64,000 nt of DNA. Origin: Escherichia coli (GTDB lineage Bacteria > Pseudomonadota > Gammaproteobacteria > Enterobacterales > Enterobacteriaceae). Made by a program: the position numbers and the translations under genes. Each line of letters begins with the position of its first letter. Position 1 is the stretch's first letter. Below are positions 14,203 to 17,827 of the stretch, piece after piece. The stretch lies in assembly GCF_003334335.1 (NCBI RefSeq), contig NZ_QOWQ01000012.1; one strand, 5' to 3'. Under the pieces are notes generated by a model. That model made no database searches and had not been told where the DNA came from. It worked only from the letters and a program-made list of their open reading frames with translations.

Positions 14203-14880
14203 ATGAGTGCGTCGTTGGCGATCCTGACCATCGGCATTGTACCTATGCAGGAAGTTTTGCCGCTCCTGACGGAATACATTGACGAAGATAATATTTCCCA
14301 TCATAGCCTGCTGGGGAAGTTAAGTCGTGAAGAAGTGATGGCGGAGTACGCGCCAGAAGCAGGCGAAGACACCATTCTCACATTATTAAATGACAACCAG
14401 CTGGCCCATGTTTCGCGTCGCAAAGTGGAGCGTGACCTGCAAGGTGTGGTTGAAGTGCTCGATAATCAGGGTTATGACGTCATTTTATTAATGAGTACAG
14501 CAAACATTAGTAGTATGACTGCGCGTAATACGATCTTTCTTGAGCCGTCGCGAATATTGCCTCCACTGGTTTCCTCTATTGTTGAAGATCATCAGGTGGG
14601 GGTTATCGTTCCGGTTGAGGAGATGCTGCCCGTTCAGGCGCAAAAATGGCAAATTTTGCAGAAATCGCCGGTATTTTCATTGGGTAACCCCATTCATGAT
14701 TCAGAACAAAAAATCATTGATGCCGGGAAAGAATTACTGGCAAAAGGGGCTGATGTCATCATGCTGGATTGTTTAGGATTTCACCAACGTCATCGCGATT
14801 TACTGCAAAAACAGCTCGATGTTCCTGTCTTGCTGTCTAACGTATTGATTGCACGGCTGGCTGCGGAATTACTGGTGTAA
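14203..14880 (+). CDS. aroM: AroM family protein (function unknown)
   Basis: 225-aa [25 protein letters not shown]...; matches recalled AroM. Confidence 0.9.
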
Positions 14881-14951
14881 TTTTGCGTGACAGCCAGCGC
14901 CTCTGGCCCCTATAGTGAAGTAGATGTTCAACTACCAAACAGGGCCAGTTT

Positions 14952-15236
14952 ATGCTTCAAAGTAATGAGTACTTTTCCGGCAAAGTGAAATCAATCGGCT
15001 TTTCCAGCAGCAGCACTGGTCGCGCCAGCGTGGGTGTTATGGTTGAAGGCGAATACACCTTCAGCACCGCTGAGCCGGAAGAGATGACGGTAATCAGTGG
15101 CGCGCTGAATGTGTTACTGCCTGACGCGACCGACTGGCAGGTGTATGAAGCCGGTTCGGTGTTTAATGTTCCCGGTCACAGTGAGTTTCATCTGCAAGTT
15201 GCCGAACCCACCTCTTATCTGTGCCGCTATCTGTAA
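14952..15236 (+). CDS. ppnP: pyrimidine/purine nucleoside phosphorylase PpnP (YaiE)
   Basis: 94-aa [20 protein letters not shown]..., cupin-like; matches recalled YaiE/PpnP. Confidence 0.9.
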
Positions 15237-15243
15237 TTCCTCG

Positions 15244-15273
15244 CCTTCCCCTTGAACGGGAGGGCATTTTTCT
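15244..15273 (+). terminator. hairpin plus T-run after ppnP
   Basis: ccttccc-(loop cttgaac)-gggaggg stem followed by cattttt. Confidence 0.5.
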
Positions 15274-15443
15274 GAAATATCCTTTCTTTAGCCCATAATA
15301 ATATTTCCTTTGCTGCGATTTTTTCAATTTCCGATATATTCATAATTTATCAAGGTTGATATAAATATCAGTGAAGATCTCCAGATATTGTTGCGGAACT
15401 GGCTACGATAAAAGATAAATCAGATGATGAATGGTGGCGTGCA

Positions 15444-15725
15444 TTGCTGCAAAGTCGCAATGATCATTTACGCCAAACGGCATTGCGCAACGCACATACC
15501 CCGGCGTTGTTGTTAACGACATTGACTGAGCCTCAGGATCGGTCGCTGGCTATTAATAATCCACAGCTGGCTGCCGATGTGAAAACGGCGTGGTTAAAAG
15601 AGGATCCATCATTACTCTTATTTGTCGAACAACCCGATCTTTCGCTGTTACGTGATTTAGTGAAAACCGGGGCAACGCGGAAAATTCGCAGTGAAGCGCG
15701 TCACCGGCTTGAGGAAAAACAATGA
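15444..15725 (+). pseudogene. ykiA: ykiA-like ORF, probably a C-terminal gene remnant
   Basis: 93-codon ORF whose only start is TTG at 15444; the reading frame is open upstream to a stop at 15372-15374 with no ATG or GTG; Leu/Ala-rich repeat-like sequence. Confidence 0.4.
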
Positions 15726-15829
15726 CACAACGTCCATGGAGCAAGTTACAGCGTAAAACGCATAATATTGCTGCGCTAAAAATTATTGCTCGCCGTAGCG
15801 AATAATTATATGCCTGGTGTGGCTTCGTA

Positions 15830-15864
15830 CGCCGGATAAGACGCGGCAGGCGTCGCATCCGGCA
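15830..15864. repeat. REP palindromic unit
   Basis: gccggataagacgcggcaggcgtcgcatccggc matches the REP consensus. Confidence 0.75.
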
Positions 15865-15882
15865 TTAAAGGAAAATCAGCAA

Positions 15883-16794
15883 TTAACGTTGTGCTTCGCC
15901 ACCTAATCCTTCAATCAGGTTTTGAATTAACGCTGCCAGTTCACCAGTCATCAGGATGAAATCGGCATCAAAACGCTGGGCGAAATCTTCACGGTCGATA
16001 TCTTCGTTTTGATCGCGCAGCTCGTCGCAGAACTTCAGACGCTTGAGCGAACCATCGTCGCACATCACAAACTGAATGCGCTGCTGCCAGTCGAGCGCCA
16101 GTTTAGTCACCACTTTTCCGGCTTCAATGTGATTGGTGATCTCTTCGCTGGTCAGATCTTGTTTCTTCGCGCGGATCACGCCGCCATCTTCCAGCAACGA
16201 TTTCAGCTCGGCTTCATCAAGCAGCTGGAAGCCCTGTGCCGCACTACCGGAGCGAACCCATTCGGTCAGCGTCAGTTCAATCGGGTTTTCCATGCTCAAT
16301 GGTACAACCGGTAACGACCCCAGGCTTTTACGCAGTAATGCCAGCGTATCTTCCGCTTTTTTGGCACTGGCGCAGTCCACCATAATCAAACCGTTAACCG
16401 TGTCGATCCACATCATTGTCTGGCTAAAACGGCTGAAAGCACGCGGCAGCAGAGAGTGCAGCACTTCGTCTTTCAGCGAATCTTTTTCGGTTTTCTTCAG
16501 CTTACGCGCCTGTTCCGCTTCCAGTTTGGCGATTTTCGCTTCCAGCGCCTGTTTAATCACCGGAGACGGGAGGATTTTTTCTTCTTTGCGCGCGCAGATA
16601 ACAATTTGACCATTGGCAACGTGCGTTAACGCATCGCTGTGCGATCCCATCGGAGGAACCCAGCCCATCTTCGCCATGTCCTGGCTGCCGCATGGGGTAA
16701 ATGCCATCGAGGCTAGCTGTTTTTCCATCTCTTCTGCACGCAGCGAAATCTCGCGGCTAAGACGGTAAACCATTAAATTTTTGAACCACAGCAT
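15883..16794 (-). CDS. rdgC: recombination-associated protein RdgC
   Basis: Start at ATG 16794 ([16 protein letters not shown]...), 303 aa as recalled; the track ORF extends 24 codons upstream. Confidence 0.94.
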
Positions 16795-16918
16795 GATAAT
16801 TTCCACGGCCTTGTCGTTAAATTTAGCGGGCATGATAACGAATTGTCGGCGGCCTTGCATTGCCAATCCGGTTGTCCGTCTCTACGCTATTGATATTGAA
16901 AAAAATAAGGAGAGTACC

Positions 16919-17827
16919 GTGCGTATAGGTATCGATTTAGGCGGCACCAAAACTGAAGTGATTGCACTGGGCGATGCAGGGGAGCAGTTGTACCGCCATC
17001 GTCTGCCCACGCCGCGTGATGATTACCGGCAGACTATTGAAACGATCGCCACGTTGGTTGATATGGCGGAGCAGGCGACGGGGCAGCGCGGAACGGTAGG
17101 TATGGGCATTCCTGGCTCAATTTCGCCTTACACCGGTGTGGTGAAGAATGCCAATTCAACCTGGCTCAACGGTCAGCCATTCGATAAAGACTTAAGCGCG
17201 AGGTTGCAGCGGGAAGTGCGGCTGGCAAATGACGCTAACTGTCTGGCGGTTTCAGAAGCAGTAGATGGCGCGGCAGCGGGAGCGCAGACGGTATTTGCCG
17301 TGATTATCGGCACGGGATGCGGTGCGGGCGTGGCATTCAATGGGCGGGCGCATATCGGCGGCAATGGCACGGCAGGTGAGTGGGGACACAATCCGCTACC
17401 GTGGATGGACGAAGACGAACTGCGTTATCGCGAGGAAGTCCCTTGTTATTGCGGTAAACAAGGTTGTATTGAAACCTTTATTTCGGGCACGGGATTCGCG
17501 ATGGATTATCGTCGTTTGAGCGGACATGCGCTGAAAGGCAGTGAAATTATCCGCCTGGTTGAAGAAAGCGATCCGGTAGCGGAACTGGCATTGCGTCGCT
17601 ACGAGCTGCGGCTGGCAAAATCGCTGGCACATGTCGTGAATATTCTCGATCCGGATGTGATTGTCCTGGGGGGCGGGATGAGCAATGTAGACCGTTTATA
17701 TCAAACGGTTGGGCAGTTGATTAAACAATTTGTCTTCGGCGGCGAATGTGAAACGCCGGTGCGTAAGGCGAAGCACGGTGATTCCAGCGGCGTACGCGGC
17801 GCTGCGTGGTTATGGCCACAAGAGTAA
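16919..17827 (+). CDS. mak: fructokinase / manno(fructo)kinase, ROK family
   Basis: GTG start at 16919 preceded by aaggagag; [16 protein letters not shown]/sugar-kinase N-terminal motif and a CxCGxxGC zinc motif; 302 aa. Confidence 0.92.

Follow-up and report, generated by a model that had tools for sequence, protein, structure and literature searches.

The ykiA reading frame of Escherichia coli K-12 is very probably the non-functional 3′ end (codons 647–759) of a gene of 759 codons that formerly occupied the gap between ppnP and rdgC. It lies in a stretch of 64,000 nucleotides, which we refer to as the window. A sequence-only reading of this DNA, made without database searches, had taken the frame for a probable gene remnant, as though a larger repeat protein had been lost from this lineage and its C-terminal end were left, and each part of that proposal was borne out: the translation aligns end to end with the last residues of a 759-aa protein, prediction gives this parent the fold of a HEAT-like solenoid of helical repeats, and the start codon and first 646 codons have been deleted from a remnant that now follows a neutral pattern of substitution. 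The locus thus combines what is expected of a truncated pseudogene, namely partial homology to an intact gene of the same locus, loss of the start and N terminus with recognizable junctions, and relaxed selection. That ykiA is a pseudogene is already known, as both the NC_000913.3 record and PGAP annotate it as such, and since it is flagged in the reference record of the bacterium studied most thoroughly the value as a discovery is small. What is added here is the anatomy of the junctions, the frequencies of the alleles, a test of neutrality and an account of the predicted structure of the parent protein.

Window positions 14575–16975 match E. coli K-12 MG1655 exactly (NC_000913.3, 407800–410200; window positions equal those of NC_000913.3 minus 393,225), and ykiA does not differ in sequence or coordinates from b0392 of that strain. 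The local gene order is aroM, ppnP (14952–15236), the ykiA ORF, ykiD, a REP hairpin and rdgC, the last on the minus strand (Table 1). The sequence-only reading had placed the ORF between ppnP and the REP element, correctly, but had overlooked ykiD in between. As it described, the frame is open from an upstream stop codon; it runs to the TGA at 15723–15725, making 116 sense codons, and its product is indeed rich in Leu and Ala (20 L and 12 A among 116 residues, 28%). Its statement that the frame contains neither ATG nor GTG was right for ATG, which is absent, but not for GTG, which occurs in frame at 15579 and 15660. Similarly, the TTG at 15444 that it took for the only start is the first bacterial start codon but is followed by four further TTGs (15483, 15507, 15510 and 15522), although these and the two GTGs would all give peptides of at most 80 aa. 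It had seen no convincing Shine–Dalgarno sequence for the first TTG, and we find only a weak GGTGG 6 nt upstream. In B2-type alleles the TGA at 15372 is replaced by CGA, and another TGA lies five codons further upstream.

Table 1. Features of the ppnP–rdgC interval in window coordinates.
Feature	Position	Strand	Basis and remarks
Intrinsic terminator of ppnP, hairpin and T run	15243–15265	+	Terminator scan; 8-bp stem with 6 GC pairs, ATTTTTCT; marks the end of ppnP
Sigma-70-like promoter match in the ppnP–ykiA spacer, CTGAAA–16 nt–CATAAT	15272–15299	+	Consensus scan, 9/12 matches
In-frame TGA bounding the ykiA frame 5′	15372–15374	+	
Deletion scar, 18 nt	15378–15395	+	Equals internal L002 1631–1648 (codons ~357–362, SPDIVA); blastn and alignment
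ykiA (b0392), pseudogene, DUF2773 family	15384–15725	+	Equals NC_000913.3 408609–408950; NC_000913.3 and PGAP annotation, BLASTP, Pfam
TTG, first bacterial start codon in the ykiA frame	15444–15446	+	Putative 93-aa product
ykiD (b4732), 27-aa protein	15722–15805	+	Annotation; SPA tag (PMC6001520); comparison with O157 and GF50 SF0329 genes
10-nt overlap at the junction of the 372-bp in-frame SF0329 deletion	15744–15753	+	Repeats CAGTTACAGCG and CAGTTACGGCG; blastn overlap and alignment
REP element hairpin between ykiD and rdgC	15831–15863	.	Inverted repeat, 14-nt arms, GCCGGATAAGACGC / GCGTCGCATCCGGC

Two minor features of the interval may be mentioned here. The REP hairpin region (15830–15877) matches the Rfam naRNA4 model weakly, at 27.8 bits, which is below the gathering score of 59.5. 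An ATG-started ORF of 101 aa on the minus strand (15553–15858) runs antisense to ykiA and ykiD and crosses the REP element; it is annotated in none of the records inspected and is probably spurious.

The parent gene survives in other E. coli. In FORC_044, which carries the O157:H7-type allele, the ppnP–rdgC gap holds a 2,280-bp gene (759 aa) and a 450-bp gene of the SF0329 family (149 aa), joined by an ATGA overlap. The DNA of ykiA is 95.7% identical to the 3′ end of the intact 2,280-bp gene, of which it represents the final 113 codons and the stop, and BLASTP aligns its translation with residues 647–759 of the protein at 105 of 113 positions identical (93%, E = 4e-70). On this alignment, ykiA is not a chance ORF. 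Compared with the FORC_044 protein (WP_120795310.1, ‘DUF2773 domain-containing protein’), encoded at the same locus, ykiA lacks the first 646 codons, which specify a signal-peptide-like N terminus, a β-helix and most of an α-solenoid. PGAP labels the frame accordingly in K-12 derivatives and in all eight of the other remnant strains inspected, as ‘DUF2773 domain-containing protein, incomplete, missing N-terminus’. The full-length ortholog that the sequence-only reading proposed to look for is present at the ppnP–rdgC locus not only in O157-type E. coli but also in Escherichia sp. E4930, where it is again 759 aa long and 73% identical.

The domain name itself deserves comment. The Pfam model PF10971 (DUF2773, 81 positions) matches residues 33–113 of ykiA (E = 4.5e-46), and in the full-length protein (encoded by FORC_044 locus L002, 563–2839) it matches only residues 679–759 (E = 1.5e-39). 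Since it covers no more than these residues, ‘DUF2773’ describes just the end of a far larger protein. Its span falls wholly inside the part kept in the K-12 remnant. The remainder of the 759-aa protein matches no Pfam model, and NCBIfam holds none for the large protein.

By blastn and alignment, window 14902–15378 corresponds to L002 85–561 of FORC_044, one base short of the ancestral ATG (563), and window 15384–15753 corresponds to L002 2501–2870. Between them sits the 18-nt scar, which matches an internal segment of the long gene and joins the base before the lost ATG, on its left, to codon 647, on its right. All full-length alleles read (D/E)SDIFAEL at residues 645–651 and SPDIV(A/V)SL at 357–364, so the SPDIVAEL of K-12 is a chimera. 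In total K-12 is missing 1,934 bp, the ATG plus 646 codons, and the simplest reading of the junctions is a history of two deletions. The first would have removed 1,070 bp, from one base before the ATG to codon ~356, with a junction overlap of 1 nt. The second would have removed 864 bp, in frame, between the GATATTkTTGCG repeats GATATTGTTGCG and GATATTTTTGCG. Both would be products of illegitimate recombination, and together they would have taken the start codon and every N-terminal part listed above while sparing the upstream promoter region.

The downstream SF0329-family gene was cut to the 27 codons of ykiD by a third, in-frame deletion, which took out 372 bp between direct repeats of 10–11 nt. 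YkiD reads MTQRPWSKLQR joined directly to KTHNIAALKIIARRSE, 11 residues from the beginning of a 151-aa SF0329 protein and 16 from its end, and its gene retains the original Shine–Dalgarno sequence (GAGGA, 6 nt upstream) and the ATGA overlap, here with the ykiA stop. Downstream of the full-length DUF2773 gene lies a member of the SF0329 family: the intact O157 protein scores 93.7 bits against NF049912 (cut-off 60) and E = 4.8e-22 against PF25753. YkiD, by contrast, keeps both ends of such a protein but lacks the 124 central residues and lies outside the family model, with no hit to NF049912. Judged by these comparisons, YkiD is derived from an SF0329-family gene and is not a member of the family in a functional sense. 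Its KIIARRSE tail is common to the GF50-type allele and the E4930 remnant, and the NYCPP ending of the O157 protein comes from a 1-nt insertion. Among alleles YkiD differs by R11H, K20R, T2K and T13K, and in B2-type alleles the C terminus is shortened. For catalogues of small proteins it is a warning that one that has been verified experimentally is the scar left by a deletion in an SF0329-family gene.

In E4930 the 759-aa gene is intact and the SF0329 gene has been lost by a different deletion that leaves a 21-codon ORF (L006 7270–7345; MRLRRKTHNIAALKIIIRRSE). Counting this deletion, at least three independent events have inactivated SF0329 in Escherichia.

Across E. coli, the K-12-type arrangement (coverage of at least 80% of window 15240–15880) is found in 4,544 of 5,426 complete genomes (84%), and the full-length two-gene locus in 444 (8%), 373 of which share 99% identity or more with the O157 allele. 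A third class of allele (GF50, L003 2600–3200; E7476, L017 1467–1923) shares the K-12 upstream junction, has lost window 15402–15721 and carries an SF0329 gene that is full-length but frameshifted. Estimated from evenly spaced rows of the search tables, this class accounts for ~7% of complete genomes and for most of those that are neither K-12-type nor full-length. A few genomes (H30 and H70) retain only the REP-proximal 90 bp. The upstream deletions, we infer, were the earliest events, and decay later took different courses in the K-12 and GF50 lineages. The locus has followed at least three independent routes of decay in Escherichia, and illustrates the stepwise, short-repeat deletion of a low-G+C accessory gene. 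Insertion sequences have also reached it: an IS1 transposase is annotated inside the ykiA remnant region of strain 5444 (H1, NZ_CP103515.1) and an IS3-family transposase inside the otherwise full-length gene of strain VE-T9 (H34, NZ_AP027963.1).

The remnant retains an active promoter. The ykiA promoter has been mapped by 5′-RACE and is activated by BglJ–RcsB, whose binding site, verified by mutation, has its centre 79 bp upstream of the start, and the same study lists ykiA as ‘unknown function, 113 aa’ (PMC3950696). Our guess, placed from the consensus, is that the sigma-70-like match in the ppnP–ykiA spacer is a candidate for this promoter. Tagged YkiD (YkiD-SPA) has been detected by immunoblot (PMC6001520). 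Together, the 5′-RACE promoter and the detection of YkiD-SPA indicate that the remnant is transcribed and its neighbour translated. The ykiA frame itself is presumably not translated; a low level of translation may occur, given the GGTGG before the TTG at 15444 and a weak GAAGA 9 nt before an in-frame ATT at 15387. The GAAGA is a leftover of the ancestral ribosome-binding region. We picture a remnant that is still transcribed from the BglJ–RcsB-activated promoter, with ykiD translated and the ykiA frame, which has no efficient start, gathering neutral substitutions.

An alternative is that the remnant is kept in a non-coding role, as a transcribed 5′ leader that brings ribosomes or a promoter to ykiD. 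The ATGA overlap of the translated ykiD with the ykiA stop would suit such an arrangement, but the strong Shine–Dalgarno sequence of ykiD means that no coupling is needed. The only mapped promoter of the unit does lie upstream of ykiA; the ykiD that it would serve, however, varies among alleles, and the presence of the ykiA–ykiD arrangement in 84% of genomes would follow equally from the descent of one old deletion allele. We consider such a role unlikely. We also give little credence to a related proposal, in which gene decay made a new, retained expression unit: the promoter of the lost gene would drive YkiD as its only efficiently translated product, and YkiD, or a weakly translated YkiA fragment of 93–113 aa, would have gained a function that helps explain the ~84% frequency of the double-deletion allele.

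Nine remnant alleles, with up to ~6% nucleotide divergence from K-12, all keep the frame of 112–113 codons open; their sole length change is an in-frame 3-bp deletion, and none has an ATG. Pairwise dN/dS is 0.59 for the remnants, in a set that also took in the O157 C-terminal segment, against 0.087 for aroM, 0.019 for ppnP and 0.030 for rdgC in the same strains. Segregating changes among the nine alleles comprise 28 nonsynonymous and 14 synonymous, where 72% nonsynonymous is expected under neutrality (binomial P = 0.49), whereas the neighbours are under strong constraint, the same count giving 8:30 for aroM (P = 7e-11), 1:7 for ppnP (P = 5e-4) and 4:33 for rdgC (P = 2e-15). Changes are also about three times as dense as in rdgC (42 in 339 nt versus 37 in 909 nt). 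In this small sample of nine alleles, the pattern is the signature of a neutrally evolving pseudogene. Between O157 and E4930, the intact gene is under purifying selection, with a dN/dS of 0.12 overall and 0.24 over its last 113 codons, the part for which the remnants give 0.59.

These data bear directly on whether ykiA could be a functional short gene, translated from the TTG at 15444 (93 aa) or from the non-canonical ATT at 15387 into a stand-alone helical-repeat ‘DUF2773’ protein. A frame intact in all nine remnant alleles and a dN/dS somewhat below 1 would fit such a gene, but the ratio of nonsynonymous to synonymous changes cannot be distinguished from neutral and the density of mutations is high. 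There is a regulated promoter at the locus and the neighbouring ORF of the same transcript unit is translated, yet the frame itself offers no ATG and only weak Shine–Dalgarno-like sequences. Gene callers in public data often predict products of 66–102 aa from the remnant; against this, the fragment is wholly deleted in the ~7% of genomes with the GF50/E7476-type allele, and in the structural model the 113 residues form the end of a continuous solenoid and no separate domain. Nor was a stand-alone short homolog found outside Escherichia. The two short hits that were followed up came from an error-ridden, low-quality assembly in which aroM and rdgC are fragmented as well (P0139) and from a contig of 241 bp (P0088), and a third, of 342 aa (P0007), lies 95 nt from the end of its contig; in none of the three is there a short form that is conserved. 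The sequence-only reading had named translation from the TTG, with conserved full-length orthologs of the same size, as evidence that would count against a remnant. Such evidence is absent; the same-sized copies found are all the same deletion allele within E. coli, and each of the eight other remnant records inspected carries a pseudogene flag. We regard a functional short gene as very improbable.

A word-indexed search for homologs of the parent recovered only six proteins, and the family emerged from an exhaustive, profile-free search that yielded 169 representative clusters, ~40 of them of 750–800 aa with 20–35% identity. These align from about residue 10 to about residue 755 of the 759-aa protein. 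The family occurs in Gammaproteobacteria, with Tahibacter amnicola and a Pseudomonas MAG among the named distant homologs. In the genomes inspected, the neighbourhoods of these distant homologs are mutually unrelated, with no conserved context and no SF0329 gene. Given the E4930 ortholog at the locus, the homologs that align over nearly their full length and the purifying selection on the intact gene, the long form is ancestral and the K-12 form derived.

The two-gene locus is AT-rich (L002 563–3288), with a G+C content of 42% in the full-length gene and 45% in the SF0329 gene, compared with 51–52% in ppnP and rdgC, as would fit an accessory locus acquired horizontally long ago. This low G+C, as in imported DNA, and the much higher frequency of the short allele might suggest that the short K-12 form is ancestral and that the O157-type 759-aa gene arose by insertion or fusion, but that idea is effectively refuted already by the full 759-aa gene in the outgroup E4930, the 750–800-aa homologs of other Gammaproteobacteria, the selection on the intact gene, and a K-12 5′ end composed of two internal segments of the long gene, which only deletion explains.

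The N terminus of the lost protein, MNRINILVICMVLFFMTGNACA followed by TEW, reads by eye like a Sec signal peptide with an A-x-A cleavage site. A confident AlphaFold2 model built from a 40-sequence alignment (pLDDT 91.5, pTM 0.80) predicts a β-helix at residues ~68–176 and a continuous α-solenoid at ~240–759. The stacked helical-hairpin repeats of the predicted solenoid are those of a HEAT/ARM-type fold, and Foldseek accordingly returns HEAT/ARM scaffolds (designed armadillo proteins, the PP2A A subunit and importins) at E values of 7e-7 to 1e-4 with low TM-scores. Relative to these scaffolds and alphaRep, TM-scores are only 0.15–0.30, identities 10–17% and the Pfam HEAT match E = 8.5; in the model the likeness would be one of fold class and does not indicate homology or common function. 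The β-helix domain, which is wholly absent from the K-12 remnant, can be compared with bactofilins and other right-handed β-helices (BacA, 2n3d and 6ria; tapirin; autotransporter passenger domains), but the parent gives no Pfam bactofilin hit.

Other assignments were tried and set aside. Leucine-rich variant repeats (LRV, PF01816), suspected from an ‘A.NP.TP..L..L’ pattern, gave no Pfam hit at E ≤ 10 for either the full-length protein or the fragment. A toxin/immunity or defence pair of DUF2773 and SF0329 proteins was also considered: PADLOC matched no families at E ≤ 0.01 for either protein, no SF0329 gene lies next to the large-protein homologs of the other genomes inspected, and the large gene of E4930 lacks an intact one. 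No catalytic family, defence-system model or solved relative of the parent was found in Pfam, NCBIfam, PADLOC or the PDB, where a sequence search found nothing for the large protein and returned no more than noise for SF0329, and a literature search on DUF2773, SF0329 and b0392 returned nothing relevant. Our best guess, from the modelled fold and the apparent signal peptide, is that the parent was an exported protein-binding or surface-associated scaffold, its envelope location and its binding role both being suggested by these features. The name DUF2773 stands for the last 81 residues of a roughly 760-aa protein of Gammaproteobacteria that is predicted to combine a β-helix with an α-solenoid.
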